Shown one piece after another: positions 5,271-59,561 of a DNA stretch of 64,000 nt. Position numbers and translations under genes: made by a program. A model generated the notes under the pieces. That model ran no database searches and was not told the DNA's origin. It saw only the letters and a program-made list of their open reading frames with translations. The stretch is taken from the NCBI GenBank assembly GCA_021736385.1, contig JAIPFY010000003.1, forward strand, positions 9,828-73,827, written 5' to 3'. The stretch's first letter is position 1, and each line of letters opens with the position of its first letter. This stretch comes from Spirochaetia bacterium. GTDB lineage: Bacteria > Spirochaetota > Spirochaetia > CAKZLE01.

Positions 5271-5283
5271 TAAAAACCGATTT

Positions 5284-5368
5284 GGAGAGGTGTCCGAGTG
5301 GTCGAAGGAGGCGGTCTTGAAAACCGTTGAATCGCAAGATTCCGGGGGTTCGAATCCCCCCTTCTCCG
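5284..5368 (+). tRNA. tRNA-Ser(TGA)
   Basis: GGAGAGG acceptor strand, anticodon loop CTTGAAA, long variable arm, GGTTCGAATCC T-arm, G discriminator; no encoded CCA. Confidence 0.95.
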
Positions 5369-5405
5369 TTTCTTTTTTTGATAGGTCTTTATATGTTAAT
5401 CCTTT

Positions 5406-5492
<87 letters not shown>

Positions 5493-5506
5493 TTTTTATT
5501 TTTCTT

Positions 5507-5580
5507 GTATCCATAGCTCAGATGGATAGAGCATTAGATTGCGGATCTAAAGGTCGGAGGTTCGAGTCCTCTTGGGTACA
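5507..5580 (+). tRNA. tRNA-Arg(GCG)
   Basis: GTATCCA/TGGGTAC acceptor stem, D-arm TAGCTCAGATGGATAGAGC, anticodon stem TTAGA/TCTAA with loop TTGCGGA, T-arm GGTTCGAGTCC. Confidence 0.93.
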
Positions 5581-5610
5581 CAAGACTATGTATCGTTCAT
5601 GTTCTTTGTT

Positions 5611-5698
5611 GGAGAGATGCGAGAGTGGCCGAATCGGGCGGATTCGAAATCCGCTGTGCCGTTCTGCGGCACCGAGGGTTCGAATCCCTCTCTCTCCG
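5611..5698 (+). tRNA. tRNA-Ser(CGA)
   Basis: Anticodon stem GCGGA/TCCGC, loop TTCGAAA, long variable arm. Confidence 0.95.
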
Positions 5699-5716
5699 TA
5701 TATATATGTGTTGCTT

Positions 5717-5804
5717 GGAGAGATGACCGAGAGGCCGAAGGTGTGCGCTTGGAAAGCGTATGTACCCCAACAGGGTACCGGGGGTTCGAATCCCCCTCTC
5801 TCCG
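5717..5804 (+). tRNA. tRNA-Ser(GGA)
   Basis: Anticodon stem TGCGC/GCGTA, loop TTGGAAA, long variable arm. Confidence 0.95.
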
Positions 5805-5827
5805 TTCCCCTTCAGTGTTGATAGTCA

Positions 5828-5911
5828 GGGACTGTGCTATTGATCTTCACCCAACTCCGTCAGGACCGGAAGGTAGCAGCGGTTAGTGAACGACCAATGA
5901 GACATGGCTTT
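5828..5911 (+). ncRNA. ffs: small bacterial SRP RNA (4.5S)
   Basis: Domain IV signature TCAGGACCGGAAGGTAGCAGC in a long hairpin (TTCAC/GTGAA, ATTG/CAAT); the position just upstream of dnaX is the conserved one. Ends approximate. Confidence 0.9.
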
Positions 5912-5981
5912 CTTGACTTGAGCTGGAGGGGTTTTTTTTCTTTATGTGTATCGTGTATAATTCCCCTTAAGGAGATATACC

Positions 5982-9327: not shown

Positions 9328-10794
9328 TTATAGTTTGTCGATGAGCATAGAACATTTTCCCGAAGGGATCGGTAGCGTCTTCTTCTTCTGCTCGTCAAGG
9401 ATATCGATCGTGAAATAGTAGAGCTTCTCGGACTCCAGCCGTATCTCCCAACCACGGGTGTTCTTATTGCTCAAGATGGTGATGAGGTTCCTCTTGAGAG
9501 AGAGATCTTCGATCCCCATGGCCTCCAGCGTCGGCATGACCCAATCCACAGTCTTCCTCGGCAGACTGATCATCAGTCCCACCACATTCTCGATCATCAG
9601 TCCTATGGTCACCAGCCCGATCATGGGCAGGAACTTCTTACGGGGAAAATCCGGATGCCCGGGATACTGTGCCGGTCCCTCTCTCAGGGGTAGGTAGGCC
9701 TCATAGACATCTCCATTTTCCGTGCCATCGGGATGGAGTGTATCAAGGATGAAGTAGAGATGTCTGATCGCACACTCACGGGCGAACTCGAACTCCTGAT
9801 ACCGTTCCAGCCCCTTGATCACCATGAAGGTATGGGAGGGAAGGACAGATCCGCAATACCCGTTGCCATCTTCAGAGAAAGCTTTCTGATCAGCAGCGAT
9901 CGTCGGGAAGGGATTCTCAGTACCAAACACTTCAGGGTCCTTGAGCTGACTGATCAGTCGCTCTGCCCGGTCTTCATTAGGGATCTCTGCAAGCAGCGTC
10001 CAATAGGTACCGATCGTCTTGAGTCGAACCTGTTTCTCCTGTGCATCAAGATCATAATAGAACCCGTCTGCAGCGTTCCACATCAGCGTATTGATCCGGG
10101 TCTTGAACGAGAAGTACTGCCGCTTATAACGGAAGCTGAGTTCCTTGTCATTGAGCACATCACCGATAGCGGACATATACAGCGCATTCACAGCCATCAT
10201 GGCATTGAAGTCTACTGGATAGGCGACCTGCTTACGGGGGAGATTCCCCATGAGCGTCGCAGCCATCGGGACCGAGTAGAGTCCGTTCTCCTGCTTGAAG
10301 GTCTCATCAAGCCAGGTCATATAGTTCTCAAGGACAGGGACGACCTCTTTCAGCCGTTTTTTGTTCCCGACCTTATGGTAGAGGTTGAATTCCACATAGG
10401 CGAACAGCGGGGGGTGTACCCCCTGAGGGTTTTCCTCTGTGAAGACAGGGGAACCATCTTCGATGGAATACTCTCCCCTGATGGCACCGGAAGCTTCCTG
10501 CTTGCTGTAGAAGAAATCAAGCATGGGAAACGGGGAATAGGTCTGGTTGCTGTATACCAGAAAGAAGGAATCCAGGCACGAGTAATACTGATGATACGTG
10601 TCCTGACCATCATATGAGAGATAATGGGTTGGAGATTCAGCTTCTCTCGCGCCTGCTTCCCATCTATCATGAATCCAGAGCCAGGTGCGGTCGTACAGAT
10701 CCACAAAATCCTGATCATAAAAATGCACTGAGGGTACGTTATCCTTTACCAACAAAGACTCCTTTGAACATATTAAATTCCAAAACTCCAACAT
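9328..10794 (-). CDS. glycoside hydrolase, GH63/MGH1 (trehalase-like alpha6/alpha6) family
   Basis: VHPPLFAYVE, PVDFNAMMA, LWNAADGFYYD, TIGTYWTLLA, EAY motifs. True start may be slightly downstream. Confidence 0.7.
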   Translation of the reverse strand: MLEFWNLICSKESLLVKDNVPSVHFYDQDFVDLYDRTWLWIHDRWEAGAREAESPTHYLSYDGQDTYHQYYSCLDSFFLVYSNQTYSPFPMLDFFYSKQEASGAIRGEYSIEDGSPVFTEENPQGVHPPLFAYVEFNLYHKVGNKKRLKEVVPVLENYMTWLDETFKQENGLYSVPMAATLMGNLPRKQVAYPVDFNAMMAVNALYMSAIGDVLNDKELSFRYKRQYFSFKTRINTLMWNAADGFYYDLDAQEKQVRLKTIGTYWTLLAEIPNEDRAERLISQLKDPEVFGTENPFPTIAADQKAFSEDGNGYCGSVLPSHTFMVIKGLERYQEFEFARECAIRHLYFILDTLHPDGTENGDVYEAYLPLREGPAQYPGHPDFPRKKFLPMIGLVTIGLMIENVVGLMISLPRKTVDWVMPTLEAMGIEDLSLKRNLITILSNKNTRGWEIRLESEKLYYFTIDILDEQKKKTLPIPSGKCSMLIDKL

Positions 10795-11997: not shown

Positions 11998-13911
11998 ATG
12001 AATTCGTACGATAAGTTCCTCCCAACGACACAGGATGAGATGGCAGGACGCGGCTGGGAGGTCTGTGATTTCGTGATCATCACCGGTGATGCATATGTGG
12101 ATCACCCGTCATTCGGCGCTGCACTCATCGGACGGCTGCTGGAATCGCAGGGGTATGCTGTCGGGATCATCGCACAACCGGCATGGGACAGTCCTGATGA
12201 CTTCAGGAGACTCGGCAGGCCGAGACTGGCGTTCATGATCACCTCCGGGAACATCGACTCCATGGTAGCCCATTACACCTCTTCCCATAGACCCCGCACT
12301 CAGGACAGCTACAGTCCGGGGGGGACCTGCGGTCTCAGACCTGATCGGGCAGTGATCACCTATACCGCACGGGCCAGACAGGCCTACAAACAGGTACCGG
12401 TCATCATAGGTGGGCTTGAGGCCTCACTCCGCCGTCTGTCGCACTACGACTACTGGTCCGATACGGTCAGAAGGTCCATCCTCCTTGATGCCAAAGCAGA
12501 TCTGCTGATCTACGGGATGGGAGAACATCCGGTGACCGCAGTCTGTCAGCGACTGCGCGAGGGGGTCCCCGTCGGGGCTATCCGCGATATCCCCGGGACC
12601 GTCATCAAGCTGAAGCGTTCTGACTTCCTTGATCCTCAGCGAGTCCAGCACTGCCCCGAAGTCCTTTTGCCCGGGTACGAAGAGGTCTCAGATCGTGACA
12701 AGCATTCGAACACCGGCAGTGATGCCGGGAAGCAGTCCTATGCACGATCGATCAACCTTCGCATCCTCCATGAGAATGCCATGCAGCCGCAGCGGCTGAT
12801 CGAGGAGTACCCCGACTGCTTCATCATACAGAACCCGGTCGCCCTGCCCCTCTCTACAGCTGAACTTGACAGCGTATATGAACTGCACTATACCCGCAGA
12901 TCCCATCCCATGTATGATTCATACGGCGGGGTCCCGGGGCTTTCAGAGGTCCAATACAGTATCACCAGCTCCCGAGGCTGCTTCGGCGGCTGCTCCTTCT
13001 GTGCCCTGACCTTTCATCAGGGGAGGATCGTTCAGGCACGAAGCAGTCTCTCCATGATCAGAGAGGCCGAGGAGCTTACGCACGATACGGAGTTCAAAGG
13101 ATATATCCATGACGTGGGAGGGCCGACTGCCAATTTCAGCGGACCCTCCTGCAAGAGGCAGGCTGTTCATGGGGCCTGCACAGACCGGCAGTGTCTCTTT
13201 CCCGAGCCCTGCCCTGCCCTCCAGGACACCCATGAGCCGTACCTCAAGACGCTGGTAGAGATGAGAGAGCTTCCAGGGGTCAAGAAGGTCTTCATCCGTT
13301 CAGGTATCAGGTACGATTATCTGCTTGCGGCTGCCCCGGAACAGACCAGAGACCGGTTCATGCAGGAGTTGTGCACCCACCATGTGAGCGGACAGCTCAA
13401 AGTCGCTCCTGAACATGTCTCTTCGAGAGTACTCGATGCCATGGGAAAACCGGGTATCGAGGTGTTCGAGGAGTTCTCCACACGTTTTGCACAGGCTAAC
13501 GATCAAGCCGGTAAGAAGCAGTACATCATCCCCTACTTCATCTCCGGGCATCCCGGTTCTACCCTGGACGATGCTATCGCGCTTGCACAATACCTGCAGA
13601 AGAGCCGGTTCATCCCCGACCAGGTTCAGGATTTCTATCCTACCCCGGGGACCGTATCGACCTGCATGTACTATACCGGACTCGACCCGAGGCCGGGCAG
13701 GGACTTCGCACCGGTGTATATCCCGAAGGGAAGAGAGAAGCATCTGCAGCGAGCCCTCATCCATTTTCACAAGCCGGAGAATCATGCCCTGGTGATCGAA
13801 GCCCTCACCACCGCAGGACGGACCGATCTCATCGGAGAGGGTCCCTCGGCACTGGTGCGGAGAAGAGGCCCCTCTTCAGAGAAGAAGAAGAAGAGACAGA
13901 ACCGACGATAG
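11998..13911 (+). CDS. ygiQ: YgiQ family radical SAM protein
   Basis: GDAYVDHPSFG, SLRRLSHYDYWSD, CFGGCSFC, DVGGPTAN, VKKVFIRSGIRYD, QVQDFYPTPG. Confidence 0.93.
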   Translation: MNSYDKFLPTTQDEMAGRGWEVCDFVIITGDAYVDHPSFGAALIGRLLESQGYAVGIIAQPAWDSPDDFRRLGRPRLAFMITSGNIDSMVAHYTSSHRPRTQDSYSPGGTCGLRPDRAVITYTARARQAYKQVPVIIGGLEASLRRLSHYDYWSDTVRRSILLDAKADLLIYGMGEHPVTAVCQRLREGVPVGAIRDIPGTVIKLKRSDFLDPQRVQHCPEVLLPGYEEVSDRDKHSNTGSDAGKQSYARSINLRILHENAMQPQRLIEEYPDCFIIQNPVALPLSTAELDSVYELHYTRRSHPMYDSYGGVPGLSEVQYSITSSRGCFGGCSFCALTFHQGRIVQARSSLSMIREAEELTHDTEFKGYIHDVGGPTANFSGPSCKRQAVHGACTDRQCLFPEPCPALQDTHEPYLKTLVEMRELPGVKKVFIRSGIRYDYLLAAAPEQTRDRFMQELCTHHVSGQLKVAPEHVSSRVLDAMGKPGIEVFEEFSTRFAQANDQAGKKQYIIPYFISGHPGSTLDDAIALAQYLQKSRFIPDQVQDFYPTPGTVSTCMYYTGLDPRPGRDFAPVYIPKGREKHLQRALIHFHKPENHALVIEALTTAGRTDLIGEGPSALVRRRGPSSEKKKKRQNRR

Positions 13912-34618: not shown

Positions 34619-35515
34619 CTAACTGAAGAGATCTTCTTTCTTTGATATGAGTGTATAGATCCGTTCCAGATCATCTGAAGAGTAGAAAGCTATCTCTACA
34701 GAGCCTTTCTTCAAGCTGCCTTTAATATGCACTTTTGAGCCGCAGGCATCAAGGAATTTCTCTTCGATAGCAGCAACTTCCGGTGATCGGTGCTTGATGG
34801 TACGTTTCTTCTTGCTGCTTGCAGCTCTCTGCCCCTTGTTCATATCCTGTGCCATCTGTTCAGCCTGGCGTACAGAGAGGTGCTCGATGATGATCTTATT
34901 GTGCAGGATGGTCTGTTCTGCCGGGTTGATCACAGACATGATCGCACGGGCGTGTCCTGCCGTGATCGCCTGACTGATCAGTGAGTTCTGCACCTGCTTC
35001 GGCAGACTGAGCAGTCTGACACTGTTCGCGACTGTTGACCGTTTCTTGCCGACCCGAAGTGCAAGCTCTTCCTGATTGATCTTCGCCCGATCCATCAGGT
35101 ACCTGAAAGCCTTAGCTTCTTCGATAGCGTTCAGATTCTCTCTCTGGATGTTCTCGATCAGGGCAACTTCCAGTCTCTGGCCTTCAGTGAAGTTCTTGAT
35201 CACTACGGGGATGTCTTTCATCCCCGCAAGTTTTGAAGCTCGGTATCGTCGTTCACCAGCTACGACCACATAATAGTCTCCCTGCCGTTCGACTATGATC
35301 GGCTGAAGGACTCCCTGATTCTTGATCGATTCTGCAAGCTCTTTGAGCGACTCGATATCAAAGCTCTTTCGCGGCTGACCAGGATTCGGTATGATCGCAT
35401 CCAACAGGATCCTCTCGATCCTGTCACCAGACTTGTTGGTATCTTCTACGATGTCATCAAACGTATAATCACCGATCAACGAGTTTATCCCTTTTCCAAG
35501 ACCTCTTTTAGACAC
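34619..35515 (-). CDS. parB: chromosome partitioning protein ParB/Spo0J
   Basis: GLGKGINSL, NPGQPRK, GVLQPI, VAGERRYRA (CTPase GxxR), ENIQRENLN, HTH. Confidence 0.97.
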   Translation of the reverse strand: MSKRGLGKGINSLIGDYTFDDIVEDTNKSGDRIERILLDAIIPNPGQPRKSFDIESLKELAESIKNQGVLQPIIVERQGDYYVVVAGERRYRASKLAGMKDIPVVIKNFTEGQRLEVALIENIQRENLNAIEEAKAFRYLMDRAKINQEELALRVGKKRSTVANSVRLLSLPKQVQNSLISQAITAGHARAIMSVINPAEQTILHNKIIIEHLSVRQAEQMAQDMNKGQRAASSKKKRTIKHRSPEVAAIEEKFLDACGSKVHIKGSLKKGSVEIAFYSSDDLERIYTLISKKEDLFS

Positions 35516-36266
35516 GTTCTACCACCTCTTTCGCGAGTTTCTTATAGCTCACAGCGCCGGCACATCGGGGATCATACAGATTGATAGGCAAACCATGTGA
35601 AGGTGCTTCTGATAATCGTATATTTCTCGGGATATAGCTGCTGAAGACTTTTTCTTTGAAATACCCAACCACTTCACTGACGACATCATTCGCCAATCGT
35701 GTCCTGGCATCATACATAGTGAAGACGATACCAAGAAGACTGAGGTCCCGATTGAGATTCTTCTGGATGTTCTTGATGGTCTTCATCAACATGCTGAGCC
35801 CCTCAAGAGCGAAGTACTCACACTGCAGCGGAACGATCACGAAGTCTGCAGCCACAAGACCATTGAGCGTCAGGATACCGAGCGAGGGTGGACAATCTAT
35901 GATGATATAATCCCACTCATGCACCACCTGGTCCAACTGCTTCTTCAGATAGTACTCATTACCCTGAACGTGGGACAGTTCCACATTCGCTCCGGCCAGA
36001 TTGATGTTCGATCCGACTATGAACAGATTATCCACAGGGGTCTTCTGCACCGCTTCGAACAGTGAGACATCACCGCTGATCACCTCGTAGATACCATCAA
36101 GTTCATCATCAGCACCTACCGCACTGGTCATATTACCCTGTGGATCAAAGTCTATCAGCAACACCTTTTTGCCCGCATCAGCGAGATATGCCCCGAGATT
36201 CACAGAAGTCGTAGTCTTACCTACCCCACCCTTCTGATTTGCGAATACGATTTTTTTTGCTACCAT
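35508..36266 (-). CDS. parA: chromosome partitioning ATPase ParA/Soj
   Basis: NQKGGVGKTT, IDFDPQGN, IDCPPSLG, IPRNIRLSEAPSHG; overlaps parB start. Confidence 0.97.
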   Translation of the reverse strand: MVAKKIVFANQKGGVGKTTTSVNLGAYLADAGKKVLLIDFDPQGNMTSAVGADDELDGIYEVISGDVSLFEAVQKTPVDNLFIVGSNINLAGANVELSHVQGNEYYLKKQLDQVVHEWDYIIIDCPPSLGILTLNGLVAADFVIVPLQCEYFALEGLSMLMKTIKNIQKNLNRDLSLLGIVFTMYDARTRLANDVVSEVVGYFKEKVFSSYIPRNIRLSEAPSHGLPINLYDPRCAGAVSYKKLAKEVVERV

Positions 36267-36360: not shown

Positions 36361-36582
36361 ATGGAAGACAAAGTCAAGAATGCTATAAATGATATCCGTC
36401 CATCACTACAGAATGATGGCGGTGATATCGAATTCATCAGCCTCAAAGATGATATCGTCACCGTACGTCTGGTAGGAGCCTGTGCAGGCTGTCCGATGTC
36501 TCAGATGACCCTGAAGCAGGGCGTCGAGAGATATCTGCGAGAGACCGTCTCACCTACGCTCGAAGTCGTCTCACTCAACTGA
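36361..36582 (+). CDS. NifU family Fe-S cluster protein
   Basis: IRPSLQNDGGDIE...LVGACAGCPMSQMTLKQGVE. Confidence 0.93.
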   Translation: MEDKVKNAINDIRPSLQNDGGDIEFISLKDDIVTVRLVGACAGCPMSQMTLKQGVERYLRETVSPTLEVVSLN

Positions 36583-36593
36583 CCAGAGTCGAT

Positions 36594-36609
36594 TGTTTCA
36601 CGTGAAACA
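36594..36609. promoter_or_regulatory. parS site
   Basis: Perfect palindrome TGTTTCACGTGAAACA (extends to 18 bp) matching the canonical chromosomal parS, about 330 bp from parA. Confidence 0.93.
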
Positions 36610-36641
36610 ACGCAGTCCTCTACCCATGGGGACTGCGTTTT
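36609..36641 (+). terminator. intrinsic terminator after nifU
   Basis: 10-bp stem AACGCAGTCC/GGACTGCGTT followed by TT. Confidence 0.75.
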
Positions 36642-39596
36642 CATGTATACGTACAGGCCAGACTCAGCTTGACCATCTTCAGCTGTAAAGCGCTGACTTG
36701 GACAGTATCCATTCAAGACAGCACACAACTCCAGGCAGATCCCCTTCGGGAACATCCCTGATAGCAGACACTCGAATTGTTCACAGGAATGGTATCACAA
36801 GGGGTTTCCTAGATCTGCTCGAATCACCGGGGATATGTGTGACGATGACGATACTACCACGTGAGGTTCCTGTGTTCGGGCGGTTTGTCAGTGATACAGA
36901 TCCTTGGATCATGAAGCGCCGATACCCTCCTTCGCAGAAGACAGAGATACGCTCAGAACAGGAGGTGCAGGCCCTGCTCACAACGCTGCCCAACACATCT
37001 TGATCCGACAAGCTCATTCAAACTGTACCGCAAAAGAAGGAGAGTCCTGAACACCTCAGCAATACCTGATCGCATCCTCCCCTGCAGAAGATCTGACCAG
37101 TCTTCCCGACAGAGGAGATTCCAGCCCCCTGTCCCTGTTGAAGCAGACTCTGTTGTTCAACGATTCAGTACCATTCTCATCGCATAGGATACTGTCACGA
37201 TTCTCTTCTGATACTTCTGCACACCTCCTGATCACTGCCTGTGACAATCATAACGCAGAATCATCCAGAACAGATGCGACAATCCATGTTGTAAGAATGA
37301 AGAGAGCCCGACCTCTCCAATTCGAAACACCGACCCGATATGGTGATAGACAACCTGCCATACACCACCCTGCATGCAAAGATGGCGAACGCACGTGCTT
37401 GCCGGTCACATACCTCTTGTGGCTGTGCTTCCTTATCGTACTCACAAAGTGCTCTCCATGATCACAACAGTTCTCGTCTTTCCACCTTCTATGATCGCAG
37501 ATAGAAAAACTCCTGATCAGCTGCAGATGAGACCACCGTAAGTCGCATATTCCAAGTTCTCACAAATCGGGAGGTTTCCCAGAAGGGTCTCACCTTATGC
37601 ATGCGTATATCGTGAGTGTCTGCTAAAGTGCCTGGAAGAAACCAGGTCCCTGAACCTATTCAGACCAGAGGATTACCCTGCGCTTCATCTCCATACCGCA
37701 CGATGGATGAACACGGCCACTTCGGCATACAAGACAAAAATGCTTTATAGATCCTCCATATTCCATAGACCCTGCAGGTGCCATCTGCTGCTGAGGAGTC
37801 TATCACCGGACATCAGCAGAAAACTGCAGCATAGTATTCGACTTGATACGAAACAGCAGGTAATCACTCGATCAGAAGCACAGCCTCACAGACCAAGCGA
37901 TACTATGATAGAAGAGAAGGTACATGATACATTCAGGCGACTGAAGGACCGGTTCCATACAAACGGTACAGGGATTCGTTCTGAAGAATCTGGTGACCCT
38001 CATGCGTGAGATCGTCTCGACCGGCAAGCTGGGTCAAAGCCCTGTGATGGACCCATGCGTCCGTCACTGCAGATTCACACAGGTGAGCAGCAGGATGTCG
38101 ATCCCACACCGATCATCAGAATATACTCCTGCAGGAATGGGCAGAAGATGAACATCCGCACACGAGAGCACCAGTTTCCGTGTATTCAGTACCCCTCAGA
38201 TCTGTGATACGGTACAGCCGTTCTCACCAACAGAACTGCTACCTCCTCATCATTCACGATTGCCTTCAACAGCTTCTCATCAAACCATTCCGGTGTCACG
38301 AACAGTTCCTTGGAGTTTTCTTCACGTCCAGCATGACAAAGGTGAACTTTCCCCACGTCTCATGTTCAATACTGTCACTGAATGATCTGAAATACCAGGA
38401 TCGATATCCCAACCATTCAGGCAGTCTTCTTATAAAAACTGTACGATAAGGACAGTCAGGTTTCGAACAGGGGACCTGTCTACAAGGAGTGCTATAACCG
38501 GTCATCATCAGATCGCTGGATGAAGAGAATCATGAAGGTTACAGGATCAAGAGCTGCCACGATGGACCGCTTACAGTTCACCCGTGACCATGAGAGCCCA
38601 AGCACATGGAGGGAACAAACACCGAAGCCGAAGACTCAAAGAGACCACCTGGTCCGGTATCTGAATTACGGATTCCAGTTCATGCACCATGCACAGCGAA
38701 GTCATATCACCAGAAGTTTTTTGCTGCAGTCCTGGTACATTCTCTACATACGGGAAAGCTGTTACGTGCAGTATACCGGATCAAGGTCGATACTACGTCG
38801 ATACGCACATGTGGTAGTTAGACAGACAGCAATGAGTTGCTGCACACTTACGTGCTGCATGAGGCCGGACTTCCTTGCGAGAGTCTTTTTTTCCAGGAGC
38901 CTGAACTCATGTGATGAGAGAAACTGGTATAGCTGGTTCAGCAGCAGGCAAGACACATCGTTGAAGGAAGATTGTCTTCTGAGTCACTACCAGCACCGAT
39001 CGAAAATCCTTTCACGTGTCATACGTATTTATGCACAAGTAATCCACAACCAGTATCAAGCATTCAGCAAGGTATTCATCAGATGCTCAGTGTGATCCAT
39101 CTTTCATGACATAGGCGTTTTCTGTATATAGAACATACATTTTCCGGGACCCATACGTCTCAACCCCTCAGTTCCGGCAAAGAGATCCGCTCAAGGGTCG
39201 TGTGCTTTTTGATTCTTTGCGATACTTATGCACAACGAGACAACAACACAGAGGCATCTTCTGACAAGGCCGAACGGATTTTTCAGTCGCGTACAAAGAC
39301 CTTCTCATAGTGTGAAGCTCACAAATCCCGGTCATATCTGACATCCTTGATGGTGCAGCAGGATACTGTACCATCAAGTTCGGCACGTGGATCGTTGAAG
39401 ATATTCTGATTCAGCCAGTCTCTTCTCACTCCGTATCAGTATCTGCAAACACGGTCTTCCTGATACGTGGGCTGTACATCAAACCATCAGAGGTCCTTCG
39501 AGCAAGACTACTTCAAAGGATATTGCGAATACGAGACAACTCTGTTGTTGATCTGAGCAGCCCACTGTCCCGAAAGAACTGCAGTCGCAGAAACAG

Positions 39597-39631
39597 ATCA
39601 GGGGCTGATCTACAGATGACCAGCCCCTGAT
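39597..39631 (-). terminator. intrinsic terminator after gyrA
   Basis: 11-bp stem ATCAGGGGCTG/CAGCCCCTGAT; minus-strand tail CTGTTTC. Confidence 0.7.
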
Positions 39632-39647
39632 TGTTTCACGTGAAACA
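39632..39647. promoter_or_regulatory. parS site
   Basis: Second perfect TGTTTCACGTGAAACA (extends to the 20-bp palindrome ATTGTTTCACGTGAAACAAT), 7 bp from the gyrA stop codon. Confidence 0.93.
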
Positions 39648-39654
39648 ATAGACT

Positions 39655-42225
39655 CTATTCGACCTCTTCAGGTTCGAGAGGTTCTTCGTTCTCTGGGGTT
39701 TCGATTGTCTCATCTCCAGAGTCTGCCTGAGCAGCAGATTCAGGGACTTCAGTCCCTTCTATATCCTCGACCTCTTCGGCTTCCTCTTCGTTCTTTTCCG
39801 TACTGGCGATCGACACGACCATATCAGGGGCCTGTATATTGGAAATGATCACACCACCGGTATTCCTTCCCTGAACGGGGATCTGGGAGGCGTTGACCCT
39901 GATCGATTGACCCATCAGTGTCACACACATGAAATCATGTTCTTCAGTCAGGCTGAGTGCCCCGGCGATCTCACCGGTCTTTTCAAAGAGCCGGTAACAG
40001 ATCTGCCCCTTCGTAGCACGCGCATGAGGTGAGAAGGTATCATAATCGACCTTCTTGCCATACCCGTTCTCTGTGATGATCAGGATCTTCTCGCTCGTAT
40101 TAACCAGCAATATTCCCGCGATCTCATCGCGTGCAGAGAGCTTCATCCCAGAGACGCCTCGGGTCGCACGTCCCATCGCACGGACCATGGACTCCTTGAA
40201 TCTCAGGCCGAGACCTCTTCGAGAGATGAGCATGACTTCACTGTTCCCATCGGTCAGCAGTGCCTTGACGAGCCGGTCGCCCTCATCAAGCTTGATCGCC
40301 GCGATACCTCTGGTCTTTGCATGTTTGAACAGCGGCAGTTCAACCTTCTTCACCACTCCCTTCGAGGTACCCATGAACACATACGTCCCTTCGGTAAAAT
40401 CCTTAAAGGAGACGATCGCAGTCACATCCTCATCAGGAGAAATCGCAAGGATCGCCTTCAAGTGAGAACCCTTTGTAGTCCGTGTCCCTTCGGGCAGTTC
40501 ATACGCCTTGATCCAATAGGCTTTTCCAGCAGTGGTCACAAACATGATATGGTCATGTGTGGAGGTGATGAACAGATGTTCGACAAAGTCATTATCACGC
40601 AGCTTGGCGGCTTTCGATCCTTTACCGCCTCGTCCCTGGCTTCGGTATTCTGTCGTCGGGACACGTTTGACGAAGCCTTTGTTCGAGACCACGATCACTA
40701 CCGTTTCTTCCCTGATGAGATCTTCCATGTTCATCTCACCGACCTCATCTCTCACGATCTCCGTCTTCCTCTTGTCCCCATATCGTTCAGAGACCTCCAT
40801 GATCTCAGTTCTCACGACACCAAGGATCTTCGCATCACTGCTGAGGAGGTCCTTATAATAGATGATCATCTGCATGAGCTGCTCGAGTTCTTCTATGATT
40901 CTCTGCGTCTCAAGGCTGGTGAGCTTCTGCAGTCTCATATCAAGAATAGCCTTTGCCTGAATCTCAGAGAGTCCGAACCGTTTCCTCAGGTTCTCATTCG
41001 CCAGAGCCACACTTTCAGACTGTTTGATGATACGGATCACTTCATCCACATTATCAAGAGCGATCTTCAGACCCTCGAGGATATGGGCACGCTCTTCAGC
41101 TTTCCGAAGATCATACTGTGTCCTGCGCACAACGACATCGACCCGGTGCCGTACATAGTAGTGGATCATCTCTTTGAGTGACAGCAGTTTTGGCTGGCCT
41201 TCAACGAGGGCAAGGTTGTTTATGTTGAAGTTCGTCTCCAGAGCTGTGTGCAGGAACAGCTGGTTGATCAGAACCTTGGGAACAGCGTTGCGTCTGAGTT
41301 CGATGACCATTCGCATACCGTCTCTATCCGATTCATCCCTGAGATCGGCAATACCTTCGACACGCTTATCACGTACGAGATCTGCGATCTTCTTCAGGAG
41401 ATTCGCCTTATTGACCTGATAGGGGAGCTCTGTGACGATTATCGCATCTCTACCGGATTTCAGTGTATCAAGATGGTACCTGGCCCGAATGACGACCTTT
41501 CCCTTCCCGGTCCGGTACGCATTGCGTATACCGCTTCTTCCATGGATGATACCCTGAGTCGGGAAATCCGGGCCCTTGACGATCTCGCACAGTTCATCAA
41601 ACGTGATCTCGGGGTTATCGATATATGCAGCGATAGCAGCACAGACCTCGGTCATATTATGGGGAGCCATATTGGTAGCCATACCGACGGCGATCCCGCT
41701 TCCTCCATTGACAAGCAGATACGGGACGGATGCCGGGAGCACCAGAGGTTCCTGCATCGAATCATCGTAATTCGGTCCGTAATCGATGGTCTCTTTGTTG
41801 ATATCTTTGAGCATCTCTTCAGCGATGCGGTTCATCTTGGCTTCTGTGTATCGCATGGCTGCAGGTGGATCACCATCGACCGAACCGAAGTTACCCTGTG
41901 GATGTACCACCTGATACCGCATGGAAAAATCCTGAGCCAGACGCACCAGAGCATCATAGATCGACTGATCACCGTGGGGATGGTATTTACCGAGAACATC
42001 ACCTACGATACGTCCACACTTCTTGAATGCCTTATCATGTCTCAGCCCCATCTCATGCATCGAATACAGGATTCTCCGGTGAACAGGTTTCAGCCCGTCC
42101 CTCACATCCGGCAGCGCTCTGCTGACAATAACGGACATGGCATAATTCAGATAGGATTCTTTCATCTCATCTTCTATGGCAATTGGTATCACTCTTTGTC
42201 CAATCTCTTTTTCAATCACATTCAT
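39655..42225 (-). CDS. gyrA: DNA gyrase subunit A
   Basis: RALPDVRDGLKPVHRR, GKYHPHGD, AAMRYTE, GyrA-box QGRGGKG, beta-pinwheel repeats, acidic tail. Confidence 0.98.
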   Translation of the reverse strand: MNVIEKEIGQRVIPIAIEDEMKESYLNYAMSVIVSRALPDVRDGLKPVHRRILYSMHEMGLRHDKAFKKCGRIVGDVLGKYHPHGDQSIYDALVRLAQDFSMRYQVVHPQGNFGSVDGDPPAAMRYTEAKMNRIAEEMLKDINKETIDYGPNYDDSMQEPLVLPASVPYLLVNGGSGIAVGMATNMAPHNMTEVCAAIAAYIDNPEITFDELCEIVKGPDFPTQGIIHGRSGIRNAYRTGKGKVVIRARYHLDTLKSGRDAIIVTELPYQVNKANLLKKIADLVRDKRVEGIADLRDESDRDGMRMVIELRRNAVPKVLINQLFLHTALETNFNINNLALVEGQPKLLSLKEMIHYYVRHRVDVVVRRTQYDLRKAEERAHILEGLKIALDNVDEVIRIIKQSESVALANENLRKRFGLSEIQAKAILDMRLQKLTSLETQRIIEELEQLMQMIIYYKDLLSSDAKILGVVRTEIMEVSERYGDKRKTEIVRDEVGEMNMEDLIREETVVIVVSNKGFVKRVPTTEYRSQGRGGKGSKAAKLRDNDFVEHLFITSTHDHIMFVTTAGKAYWIKAYELPEGTRTTKGSHLKAILAISPDEDVTAIVSFKDFTEGTYVFMGTSKGVVKKVELPLFKHAKTRGIAAIKLDEGDRLVKALLTDGNSEVMLISRRGLGLRFKESMVRAMGRATRGVSGMKLSARDEIAGILLVNTSEKILIITENGYGKKVDYDTFSPHARATKGQICYRLFEKTGEIAGALSLTEEHDFMCVTLMGQSIRVNASQIPVQGRNTGGVIISNIQAPDMVVSIASTEKNEEEAEEVEDIEGTEVPESAAQADSGDETIETPENEEPLEPEEVE

Positions 42226-45861: not shown

Positions 45862-45959
45862 ACATTTCACAAGCAGAACAGCAAGAGTTCTGATCTGCTT
45901 GTGAAATGACACAGGAGCCACACGGCCCTTTTTATGCAATTAATTAACTCATAACATAT

Positions 45960-46235
45960 TACTTATACCAAGTCTCAGGTTGTCCACAGGTTGTACATAT
46001 GCGAAAAATGACCTGTTCATAACTTCTTGATAACATAGGGATAACCTGTGGATTTTTATCAATTAATTGTGGATAATATGCTATAGTTGTTGATAGAGTG
46101 GATAGAATGTGGATAGAAAGACAGAGTTATGCACGTGTGGAATTCCTTTTTACCTGTTACCGGTTAACAGATTAAAAAAGTTATACACAGTGTCCACAGA
46201 CCCTATTACTACTACTATTAATATTATTATACTAA
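45960..46235. other. oriC (DnaA-box cluster, DnaA-trios, AT-rich unwinding element)
   Basis: TTGTCCACA 45980, TGTGGATTT 46047, TGTGGATAA 46068 (perfect), TGTGGATAG 46108, TTATACACA 46181 and GTGTCCACA 46190, then CTATTACTACTACTATTAATATTATTATAC, all in the dnaA-dnaN gap. Confidence 0.9.
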
Positions 46236-46253
46236 CCATAGTAAGGAGCTAGT

Positions 46254-57140: not shown

Positions 57141-57331
57141 TCGGTTGTTTCGGTGTACTCTCATCAGTCCAGTATATACCAATAGTGCAGGGGCAATAAA
57201 GGAGAAACCATGAGTTCTGATGAAAAAGGAGACAAGCCGGACAGGAGCCGGAGACCGTATGAGCCCATCATATTGTGCTATATGCACTGAGATTTCTTGC
57301 AAATCAGCGCAAAGGTAGTTAGAGTATGTGC

Positions 57332-58612
57332 ATGGGATCGTATATCATTCAAGGGGGAAAACCCCTGAGCGGCGAAGTGACCGCAAGTGGTAATAAGAAT
57401 GCGGCGCTGCCGTGTATCGCAGCGACACTGCTGACCGATGAGGCTGTAGTACTGAAGAACCTTCCGGAGATCGAAGATGTGCATATCATGTTCAAGATCC
57501 TCCAGGGACTGGGATCCGAGGTGAAACGGCTGAGCCCCGGAACGTATCAGATTCAGACCGGTGATATCTCAGGCACCATAGATGAGGTACTCGCAGATCT
57601 CATACGTGCCTCGATCTTGTTCGCTGGTCCTCTGCTCGGCAGAGTCGGCAAGGTGGCCCTTGCCCCGCCGGGAGGCGATATCATAGGACTGAGACGACTT
57701 GATACACACTTTCTTGCCTTCGAAGCCCTCGGTGCAGTGTCCCAAGTCACCAATGATCGGTATATCGTCATCGAGGCAGCAACCCTTACCGGCAGCGATA
57801 TATTTCTCGACGAAGCTTCGGTGACGGCCACAGAGAACGCTGTGATGGCTGCGGTACTGGCCGGAGGGAAGACGGTCATTCGCAATGCGGCAAGTGAGCC
57901 CCACGTACAGGATCTGTGCCGGATGCTCAGCAGGATGGGAGCCGAGATCACAGGGATCGGCTCGAACCTGATCCATATTGCAGGAGTTCCCCGGCTCGGC
58001 GGCTGTGAATACACCATCGGTTCAGACTACATGGAGATCGGATCCTATATCGGACTTGCCGCAGCGACCGGAGGAGAGATCACGATACACGGGGTGCAGC
58101 TCGAACATCTGCCGATGATCCGTCTGGGATATAAGAAACTCGGTATTACCTGGGTAGAACAGGGTCAGTCACTCCATGTCCCGGCACACCAGAGCCGGGT
58201 GATCTGCACCGATGTCAGCGGGATGATGACCAAGATCGATGATGCTCCCTGGCCGGGATTCCCAGCCGACCTGCTGAGTATCATCACGGTCATAGCGACC
58301 CAGATGCAGGGGACGGTTCTCGTGCATGAGAAGATGTTCGAATCACGGATGTTCTTTGTGGACATGCTCATCAGGATGGGAGCCTTCATCGTCCTGTGCG
58401 ATCCGCATCGCGCGGTGATCTCAGGACCATCAAGACTCCATGGGGCACTGGTCACCTCTCCTGATGTGAGAGCCGGCATGGCACTGGTGATCGCCGCATT
58501 ATCTGCAGATGGGAGAAGCGAGATCCAGAACGTCTTTCAGATCGAACGCGGATATGAGGATCTCTGTGGAAAACTCCATGCCCTCGGTGCTAATATCGTA
58601 CGAAAAGACTGA
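57332..58612 (+). CDS. murA: UDP-N-acetylglucosamine 1-carboxyvinyltransferase
   Basis: SGNKNAALP, LIRASILF, PGGDIIG, ASVTATEN, PWPGFPADL, PDVRAG, IERGYE. Confidence 0.96.
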   Translation: MGSYIIQGGKPLSGEVTASGNKNAALPCIAATLLTDEAVVLKNLPEIEDVHIMFKILQGLGSEVKRLSPGTYQIQTGDISGTIDEVLADLIRASILFAGPLLGRVGKVALAPPGGDIIGLRRLDTHFLAFEALGAVSQVTNDRYIVIEAATLTGSDIFLDEASVTATENAVMAAVLAGGKTVIRNAASEPHVQDLCRMLSRMGAEITGIGSNLIHIAGVPRLGGCEYTIGSDYMEIGSYIGLAAATGGEITIHGVQLEHLPMIRLGYKKLGITWVEQGQSLHVPAHQSRVICTDVSGMMTKIDDAPWPGFPADLLSIITVIATQMQGTVLVHEKMFESRMFFVDMLIRMGAFIVLCDPHRAVISGPSRLHGALVTSPDVRAGMALVIAALSADGRSEIQNVFQIERGYEDLCGKLHALGANIVRKD

Positions 58613-58645
58613 TGGATAATGAGTTGTATCATACCAATAAGCAAG

Positions 58646-58911
58646 TTATTAAGACTCTCTTAACAAGTTATCCACAAGTTATACCATAATGGGTACGCGG
58701 TAAGTGTCCTCAATGCTGTCAAGGTTTTTACATGAAGTTTTTCTACATAATTCTGTAAGATATAATAAAGCTATATATTGTATATAAATATAAAATTCTG
58801 CTTAACGAATGTTTTTTTTGGTTCGAAAAAACGAAAAAAGTATGGGGAACAGATGAGAACTTTCAAGCTTCTGCACAAGTTATCCACAAGTTGTCCAGAA
58901 TCTGTGCAAAA
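58646..58911. promoter_or_regulatory. DnaA-box cluster outside oriC
   Basis: Perfect TTATCCACA at 58668 and 58880, each inside an AG-spaced 11-bp-period array, plus an inverted TTTTGCACA at 58903-58911. Confidence 0.75.
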
Positions 58912-58913
58912 CG

Positions 58914-59561
58914 CTATCGTTTGATGATGCGGTACCCGTAACCTCGTTCTGCAATAACAAGTTCCTCATCGTAGCTCAGCACATATCTCAGCTTCTTTCT
59001 CAACTTCGAGATGGACATATCAAGGCTTCTGCTGCCTGCATCGTTCAGATTCGGCAGGCACTCGAGCAGCAGTTCCCGTTCGATGGGAAAGGGGGAAGCT
59101 CCTACCAGATATTTCAGAATGAGGTATTCGGTATAGGTTATGGAGACAGAGTTCTCATCGGTGATGACACGATCTTCAGAAAACCGGAACGAACGATCCC
59201 CGCTATAGGTGAACCGCTGCAGTGTCTGCCTGATGATCCTGCAGGCGAGCTCCTCACCTGCAAACGGGTAGATGATGAAGTCCTTCACCCCATAGGCAAG
59301 GGATGCTCGTATATGCTCTACCGGACCGAAGGCCATGATCGGATAGGTGTGTTCTATCAGCCGCTTCTGAGGGATCTCAAGCAGACTCCTGCTTGGTAAT
59401 AGATAGGCATCATACAATGGCTGCGGCCTGAAGGTATCAAAGAATATGGGTTTGATCTCTTCAAAGGCTGTGAGAGCCTCAGCGATCTGCCGCTTCTCCT
59501 CATCATCGGCGAAACAGAAATTCACGATCAGACGCGCTTGTGATGAACATAGATCTTTCAT
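58914..59561 (-). CDS. OmpR-type winged-helix protein with degenerate (pseudo) receiver domain
   Basis: C-terminal ITYTEYLILKYL...SRSLDMSISKLRKKL...ERGYGYRI; receiver-like N-terminus lacks the phospho-Asp and the Lys of KPF (IIYPF). Confidence 0.85.
   Translation of the reverse strand: MKDLCSSQARLIVNFCFADDEEKRQIAEALTAFEEIKPIFFDTFRPQPLYDAYLLPSRSLLEIPQKRLIEHTYPIMAFGPVEHIRASLAYGVKDFIIYPFAGEELACRIIRQTLQRFTYSGDRSFRFSEDRVITDENSVSITYTEYLILKYLVGASPFPIERELLLECLPNLNDAGSRSLDMSISKLRKKLRYVLSYDEELVIAERGYGYRIIKR

Follow-up and report, generated by a model that had tools for sequence, protein, structure and literature searches.

What occupies the 3 kb between two facing copies of parS, the site at which the partition protein ParB loads, next to parA and parB in the genome of an uncultured spirochaete? 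The locus lies in a 64,000-nucleotide (nt) stretch of a Spirochaetia bacterium (NCBI GenBank assembly GCA_021736385.1, contig JAIPFY010000003.1, positions 9,828 to 73,827 of the forward strand). This stretch is referred to here as the window, and all coordinates are those of the window unless a locus number precedes them. An earlier note on this DNA had described two parS sites that, together with inward-pointing hairpins, enclose an interval without assignable genes (the desert), and had read it as a deliberately transcription-free platform for the loading of ParB and SMC (structural maintenance of chromosomes). The comparisons reported here point elsewhere. Conserved, and apparently under selection, are the two parS sites and their predicted terminators at the junction of two convergent genes, which together form the predicted centromere of the chromosome. 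The intervening DNA is probably neutral, non-coding filler, most likely one or more decayed mobile-element insertions in a permissive slot between convergent terminators, with the parS pair and its hairpins as the functional unit.

The parS pair and its surroundings

The parS consensus TGTTTCACGTGAAACA was found exactly twice in the window, and both copies match the 16-bp palindrome TGTTNCACGTGAAACA perfectly (0.08 copies expected by chance). No further site was found within the 64 kb when up to three mismatches were allowed (chance expectation 0.08-0.22). The features that define the locus are listed below, with protein lengths in amino acids (aa) and with the 3' untranslated regions of genes abbreviated as 3' UTRs.

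34619..35515, minus strand: parB, 298 aa, with ParB_N, HTH_ParB and ParB_C domains (Pfam) and a GERRYRA CTP-binding box (translation)
35508..36266, minus strand: parA, 252 aa, ParA/MinD-type ATPase (Pfam)
36361..36582, plus strand: NifU-domain gene, 73 aa, reading toward the desert (Pfam PF01106, E = 1.4e-28)
36594..36609: left parS, perfect 16-bp palindrome, 11 bp past the nifU stop and within the nifU 3' UTR; invariant in all strains, position conserved in relatives
36609..36641, plus strand: left terminator-like hairpin (nifU), 12-pair stem at 36609-36639, dG -20.8 kcal/mol, then TTTTC
36642..39596: interior of the desert, 2,955 bp of apparently non-coding, neutrally evolving filler; no family matches, divergence about that of synonymous sites, absent or replaced in relatives
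39597..39631, minus strand: right terminator-like hairpin (gyrA), 14 pairs (8 G-C), dG -27.9 kcal/mol
39632..39647: right parS, perfect 16-bp palindrome, 7 bp past the gyrA stop and within the gyrA 3' UTR; invariant in all strains
39655..42225, minus strand: gyrA, 856 aa, reading toward the desert (Pfam)
45862..46253: likely oriC, dnaA-dnaN intergenic region, 35% GC, with 2 perfect and 4 one-mismatch DnaA boxes

parA and parB lie directly to the left of nifU and the desert, and gyrB, dnaA and dnaN lie to the right. The cumulative GC-skew minimum falls at ~46-48 kb, and the right and left parS are 6.2 kb and 9.3 kb, respectively, from the candidate oriC. The distance of about 6-9 kb given in the earlier note therefore stands, and its perfect parS pair, stop-codon distances, inward hairpins and gene-free 2,955 bp were likewise all recovered as described. 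Both sites are thus origin-proximal and accompanied by a cognate parAB whose ParB has the HTH and the CTP-binding N-domain, and their positions are conserved in all strains of the window species and in the related loci L001, L003-L005, L171, L173, L174 and L176 (see below). On the evidence of sequence, both are bona fide origin-proximal chromosomal parS sites beside parAB.

In characterized systems, CTP-bound ParB clamps load at parS, spread over ~15 kb and can bypass roadblocks (PMC7053999, PMC9242446), and in the spirochaete Borrelia burgdorferi ParB at a single oriC-proximal parS recruits SMC (PMC9712426). Loading, spreading and SMC recruitment as published require no gene-free tract. The window resembles the origin-proximal parS loci of ParABS/SMC systems in Bacillus subtilis, Caulobacter crescentus and B. 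burgdorferi in having a 16-bp palindrome beside parAB and <10 kb from dnaA/oriC, a GERR-box ParB, and sites conserved in relatives. Unlike those systems, it has exactly two sites in 64 kb, which face each other in the 3' UTRs of convergent genes and are parted by 3 kb of non-coding filler, not by genes or a short terminator. Note that, since the parS sites lie upstream of the hairpins in the nifU and gyrA 3' UTRs, the loading sites themselves would be transcribed through and are not insulated.

The inverted repeat formed by the two sites reaches past the palindrome (36585-36610 and 39631-39656, 26 nt, 96% complementary), and AGAGTC-G/T-A precedes each parS when read from outside. This extension is weaker in strain L084 and absent from the related locus L001, so it probably arose by chance or through local gene conversion.

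Strains of the window species

NifU proteins identical to that of the window are found on 18 contigs, and sequence was retrieved for ten of these loci. They represent three lineages: the window's own (L085 and L090, 99.6-99.97% identical), a second (L081-L083, L086, L087 and L089, 97-98% identical) and a third (L084 and L088, 93-97% identical). Both parS sites are kept in every strain, with start-to-start spacings of 3038, 3010 and 3132 bp in the three lineages, and the sites and their immediate surroundings are invariant.

The arrangement is present in at least ten independent assemblies of the species, drawn from NCBI metagenome-assembled genomes (MAGs), JGI metagenomes and Logan assemblies of several samples, with collinear flanks and graded divergence. 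Because the same parS-filler-parS order recurs in independent assemblies, it is not an assembly artefact. An assembly or binning error, or chimeric foreign DNA, might have been suspected from the oddity of the region, and from the closest sister contig (L002, ParA 83% identical) ending 219 bp inside its own inter-parS spacer (L002 1-219). That contig break is consistent with a repeat, possibly an insertion sequence (IS) element. The independent assemblies effectively refute an artefact or chimera, which retains a negligible probability.

The T-runs of both hairpins are weak (left, TTTTC, or GTTGTT in other strains; right, CTGTTTCT), and only the right hairpin passed a terminator consensus scan. 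The left stem carries a compensatory change: a T-A pair in the window appears as the intermediate T.G in L084 and as C-G in L081. L084 also has an improved right stem. The parts that carry the signature of selection are the parS pair and the hairpins, that is, the borders and not the interior.

Between the window and L084, flanking genes are 96.7-98.7% identical, 4-fold sites differ by 8.9%, and synonymous divergence (dS) is 0.11-0.13 in parB, gyrA and gyrB; the desert differs by 13%. Between the window and L081, the desert differs by 7.8%, versus 2.0% at 4-fold sites and ~0.4% in flanking genes. This divergence is mosaic (2-4% at the left edge, 10-20% at 37300-38500, ~5% on the right), which argues for homologous recombination importing a third, divergent allele into the central part (the 12100-13000 region of L081). 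Indels in the desert between lineages measure 1, 1, 1, 2, 3, 7, 10, 12, 15, 23, 31, 54 and 110 nt, and the substitutions show no codon periodicity. These figures mean that the interior evolves at about the neutral rate and is non-coding. A scan of metagenomes for relatives of intermediate distance contributed none close to the window species.

Searches of the interior

Nowhere else in the window does a stretch >1 kb lack a plausible gene. Stop codons occur in all six frames, and the longest open reading frame (ORF) has 191 codons' worth of protein (191 aa). This ORF was rejected as a real or relic gene, being broken by stops and a 2-nt frameshift in L081 and by stops in L084. A full HMMER pass over 1.84 billion representative proteins returned a single match to it, of 51 aa, which is presumably the gene predicted at this locus in L084/L088. 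Seven short ORFs are intact in all three lineages. For those that could be measured, the ratio of nonsynonymous to synonymous divergence (dN/dS) is 0.71, 1.05 and 1.02, and the others rest on only 14 substitutions; the ratio for parA, parB, gyrA and gyrB is 0-0.07. No protein-coding gene, as judged by strain-conserved ORFs, purifying selection and family homology, was recovered from the interior.

Six-frame translations of the interior, with stops masked as X, gave nothing at E ≤ 1 in Pfam and NCBIfam and nothing at E ≤ 0.1 against PHROGs. An Rfam scan at E ≤ 1 gave three chance-level matches, far under gathering scores and none with E < 0.25, and no tRNAs were found in the interior. Folding of sliding 150-nt windows on both strands gave a mean z-score of -0.3, with significant values only at the parS/hairpin ends. 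By Rfam and by folding energy versus shuffled controls, no structured non-coding RNA was detected in the interior. Promoter-like sites in the interior numbered 4, versus 5.2 expected in shuffled controls. Sensitive blastn of the desert against 72,556 plasmids and 50,697 phages gave no similarity, and two conserved desert blocks (23-nt patterns) had zero exact copies among 185,579 species genomes. Comparison with the remaining window gave no similarity either, and no internal repeats were found.

Several specific interpretations were rejected. Recoding of TGA as a sense codon was dismissed, as TAA and TAG are also at noncoding-frame density in all six frames. A silent-cassette or donor array, as in vls or tprK, was rejected on the available data, with no similarity elsewhere and no repeat structure. 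Clustering of GATC is not a feature of the desert, because GATC is enriched genome-wide: the window holds 812 copies (12.7 per kb, ~3 times the mononucleotide expectation), and at 9 per kb the motif is still enriched in the desert. Some process or selection, possibly linked to Dam-like methylation, thus seems to favour GATC throughout the genome.

The one hint of an embedded function is a candidate pair of DnaA boxes.

39029..39048, plus strand: DnaA-box-like tandem pair, TTATGCACA-AG-TAATCCACA, with a second TTATGCACA at 39226-39234

The desert thus holds two perfect boxes and one near-perfect box (one mismatch) within 200 bp (39029-39234), and the blocks of 38-41 nt around them (39026-39063 and 39206-39246) do not vary among the three lineages. 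In the whole window TTATNCACA occurs 8 times, versus 1.2 expected, and the box-AG-box layout recurs at 58664 and 58869. No DnaA boxes were found in the corresponding spacers of L001, L171, L176, L173 and L174, so the pair cannot explain the desert as a class; a small, species-specific element is possible.

DnaA-box clusters outside oriC are known as the DBCs of B. subtilis and as datA and DARS in Escherichia coli. The desert boxes resemble these in lying near oriC and being conserved among strains. Unlike them, they are far fewer and are missing from the spacers of other species.

A second cluster, ~12.5 kb from the dnaA-dnaN origin, was observed at 58613-58913 (32% GC), with two perfect TTATCCACA and three one-mismatch boxes. 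It lies between an EPSP synthase gene (57326-58612, plus strand) and a Trans_reg_C regulator gene (58914-59561, minus strand).

These results bear on the possibility that the desert hides an unannotated small RNA, a small protein, or a DnaA-titrating or regulatory box cluster, the remainder being filler. The excess of TTATNCACA, with 2 copies and a one-mismatch neighbour in tandem layout within invariant blocks, and the seven intact short ORFs speak for it. However, given the mosaic divergence, such invariant runs are by our estimate only marginally above expectation, the boxes do not recur in the other species' spacers, and the intact ORFs have dN/dS values of 0.7-1.05 or are judged from 14 substitutions only. 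Promoter-like sites do not exceed shuffled controls, and neither an excess of RNA structure nor an Rfam family was seen. Embedded elements of these kinds are therefore unlikely. Of the alternatives raised in the earlier note, the unannotated RNAs found no support in the Rfam scan and folding test, nor the small proteins in the family searches and dN/dS.

The same junction in related species

Loci of relatives were retrieved via ParA. The order gyrA stop/parS...parS/nifU stop beside parAB was found in every relative whose contig carries both gyrA and nifU. ParA identity to the window and the spacing of the parS sites are given for each locus.

L005: ParA identity 71%, parS spacing 59 bp
L004: ParA identity 74%, parS spacing 67 bp
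L003 (complete MAG chromosome): ParA identity 75%, parS spacing 72 bp
L173: ParA identity 81%, parS spacing 131 bp
L174/L175: ParA identity 81%, three parS, spacing 86 + 151 bp (L174 sites at 9422, 9508 and 9659, identical in L175)
L176: ParA identity 81%, parS spacing 992 bp
L171/L172: ParA identity 83%, parS spacing 1376 bp
L001: ParA identity 84%, parS spacing 1929 bp
Window: reference, parS spacing 3038 bp (3010-3132 bp within the species)

Spacer length varies 50-fold across the clade, and no size class is conserved. In L003 and L004 the entire interior is one bidirectional terminator. L001 has a mirror architecture like that of the window, with parS, a hairpin, 1.85 kb without credible ORFs, a hairpin and parS. 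Blastn (word size 7) and tblastx between the spacers of different species found only parS shared. The alignment across relatives proposed in the earlier note thus returned conservation of neither spacer length nor spacer sequence; the parS pair was kept. An origin of the pair from an att site or target duplication was rejected, because both sites are already present in relatives devoid of filler.

Between the two parS sites of L171 (8504-8890) and of L176 (8988-9284) lie relics of an IS3-family transposase (NCBIfam NF033516, E = 6.7e-16 and E = 1e-7, respectively). Pfam rve_3 matches to both relics are weak, and the JGI annotation of the L171 ORF is transposase InsO family protein. No transposase or other relic was found in the 1.9-kb spacer of L001 by a masked six-frame scan, and no IS3 transposase (DDE/rve core) was matched in six-frame translations of the window at E ≤ 1 in Pfam or NCBIfam. 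No intact IS3 copy was found by tblastn of the relics against all loci, and a search for relatives of the L171 relic returned the relic alone. The borders of the desert have no terminal inverted repeats or target duplication, the sole long repeat being the parS palindrome with 8-10 flanking nt.

A neighbour-joining tree of ParA and ParB (two proteins, not bootstrapped) placed L176, L171 and L001 together, and the window and L002 among short-spacer taxa, with short spacers throughout the tree. The long-spacer species fall in two separate groups, which points to at least two independent expansions. With the reservation that the tree is unbootstrapped, this suggests that short spacing was ancestral and that expansion occurred at least twice.

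These comparisons bear on the platform proposed in the earlier note. In an extended form of that proposal, the parS pair would be a selected centromere platform: ParB-CTP clamps loaded at facing parS sites and swept inward by nifU and gyrA transcription would accumulate on transcription-free DNA, giving a larger or more stable partition and SMC-loading complex. A parS pair conserved clade-wide where two genes converge fits this, as do hairpins that shield the interior on both sides (one of them kept by compensatory change), and a spacer expanded at least twice and held at 3.0-3.1 kb in three diverged lineages. Roadblocks and transcription also affect ParB spreading (PMC9242446, PMC7053999; discussion in PMC9712426). 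However, a platform predicts a conserved minimum spacer, which is contradicted by relatives with sites 59-151 bp apart, and length varies 50-fold with no preferred size. The interiors of two relatives are dead transposons, the desert itself is under no sequence constraint, and the parS sites themselves lie within transcribed 3' UTRs. Moreover, a 3-kb free zone is not needed, as ParB spreading normally covers 10-20 kb of ordinary genes (PMC9242446). Selection for such a platform is accordingly quite improbable.

A side observation was made on parS arrangement in a distant locus, L040 (OMWM01000042.1, Clostridiales RUG028). At L040 9520-9883, just upstream of parA, eight perfect or near-perfect parS sites occur ~39 bp apart (some 78 bp), a tandem array that recalls plasmid centromeres.

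Base composition and the mutational spectrum

On the plus strand the interior contains 28.0% A, 26.7% C, 23.6% T and 21.8% G (GC skew -0.10, AT skew +0.085). The C/A-richness had been noted earlier, unquantified, as a product of replication-strand bias on unconstrained DNA. To quantify it, 471 singleton substitutions were polarised among the three lineages and expressed as per-site rates on the plus strand. In the desert, G>A exceeded C>T (0.113 vs 0.072, Fisher p = 0.009) and A>C exceeded T>G (0.047 vs 0.026, p = 0.03), and T>C vs A>G (0.092 vs 0.073) was not significant. The stationary composition calculated from this spectrum is A 0.27, C 0.30, G 0.18 and T 0.25, with bootstrap intervals that include the observed 0.28, 0.27, 0.22 and 0.24 (A, C, G and T). 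Because the two match, the C/A-richness is the equilibrium of asymmetric mutation on unconstrained DNA, as had been supposed. The direction of the bias fits cytosine deamination of the leading (minus) strand left of the origin and, equally well, read-through transcription from gyrA; the two are inseparable here. The GC skew of the desert is no larger than that of neighbouring genes.

Origin and persistence of the filler

The IS3 relics of the sister species make a mobile or foreign origin most likely for the window's own filler as well, by analogy. Such DNA would land between two convergent terminators, where it disrupts no gene or operon. It would then lose function and drift to the local mutational equilibrium (C/A-rich on the plus strand), decaying past recognition. 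Removal would be slow, since a deletion has to leave both parS sites and both putative terminators intact, and the filler may persist because only deletions of that kind are tolerated.

Decayed IS3 elements in intergenic safe sites offer a close known parallel. The OrfB relics of L171 and L176 occupy the same slot, and the desert has the expected end state, with a neutral rate, frameshifting indels and no ORF conservation. In contrast to a decayed IS3, the desert shows neither recognisable homology to a transposase nor terminal inverted repeats nor a target duplication, and its 3 kb is about twice the length of one IS3 element. Among the alternatives in the earlier note, an old decayed gene block comes closest to the evidence: transposase relics in L171 and L176 favour it, and no relic was recognised in the desert itself. 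That note had also held that ordinary genes or pseudogenes at this position in relatives would tell against its proposal; this is the case insofar as transposase pseudogenes occupy the slot.

Several points weigh against decayed insertions as the explanation. Neither the 3 kb of the desert nor the 1.9 kb of L001 holds a detectable relic, of a transposase or of anything else. Three kilobases of junk is unusual in a compact, deletion-biased bacterial genome, and this stretch survived ~13% neutral divergence with small indels only. At least two spacer expansions at one slot could hint at a benefit, and a few blocks are invariant across lineages, including 39026-39063 (with the DnaA-box pair) and 39206-39246. 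The number of expansions should be read with the limits of an unbootstrapped, two-protein neighbour-joining tree.

The persistence of junk through ~13% divergence, together with repeated inflation, leaves a small chance that the slot is special. It might act as a privileged sink, in which convergent transcription corrals ParB-CTP clamps (perhaps with SMC), inserted DNA including IS elements is silenced and retained, and the spacer inflates repeatedly as a mildly beneficial or protected track; we regard this as very doubtful. That such a slot would be the bacterial analogue of a regional centromere core, growing by the capture of dead transposons, is a similarly long shot. Cohesin and SMC complexes accumulate at convergent gene ends in yeast, and ParB spreading in Caulobacter is reportedly shaped by transcription (mentioned in PMC9712426). 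By pure analogy, RNA polymerase could in principle push sliding clamps between convergent genes here; the comparative data argue that the size of the zone is not under selection.

With decayed insertions as the preferred explanation, a parS pair combined with decayed inserted DNA is nothing unusual in kind, and its placement is mildly curious. The predicted centromere of this uncultured spirochaete lineage is thereby defined as a pair of parS sites, conserved across the clade, in the 3' UTRs of the convergent genes gyrA and nifU; annotators should not look for genes in the 3 kb beside it. The desert would also offer a clean case, found in nature, of bacterial DNA that evolves neutrally, with a substitution spectrum that directly records the strand asymmetry left by replication or transcription close to an origin. 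If the slot were a sink after all, it would tie the dynamics of ParB clamps to transcription from convergent genes and to the capture of transposons, an echo of the regional centromeres of eukaryotes.

Other observations

In the second lineage (L081-L083, L086, L087 and L089, the LQA* assemblies), radA/sms and dnaA each appear as 2-3 separate gene calls, and both genes are intact in the window; the split calls are likely draft frameshift errors and not real pseudogenes. At 5283-5921 the window carries a cluster of four tRNA-Ser and one tRNA-Arg genes, followed by a small signal recognition particle (SRP) RNA.

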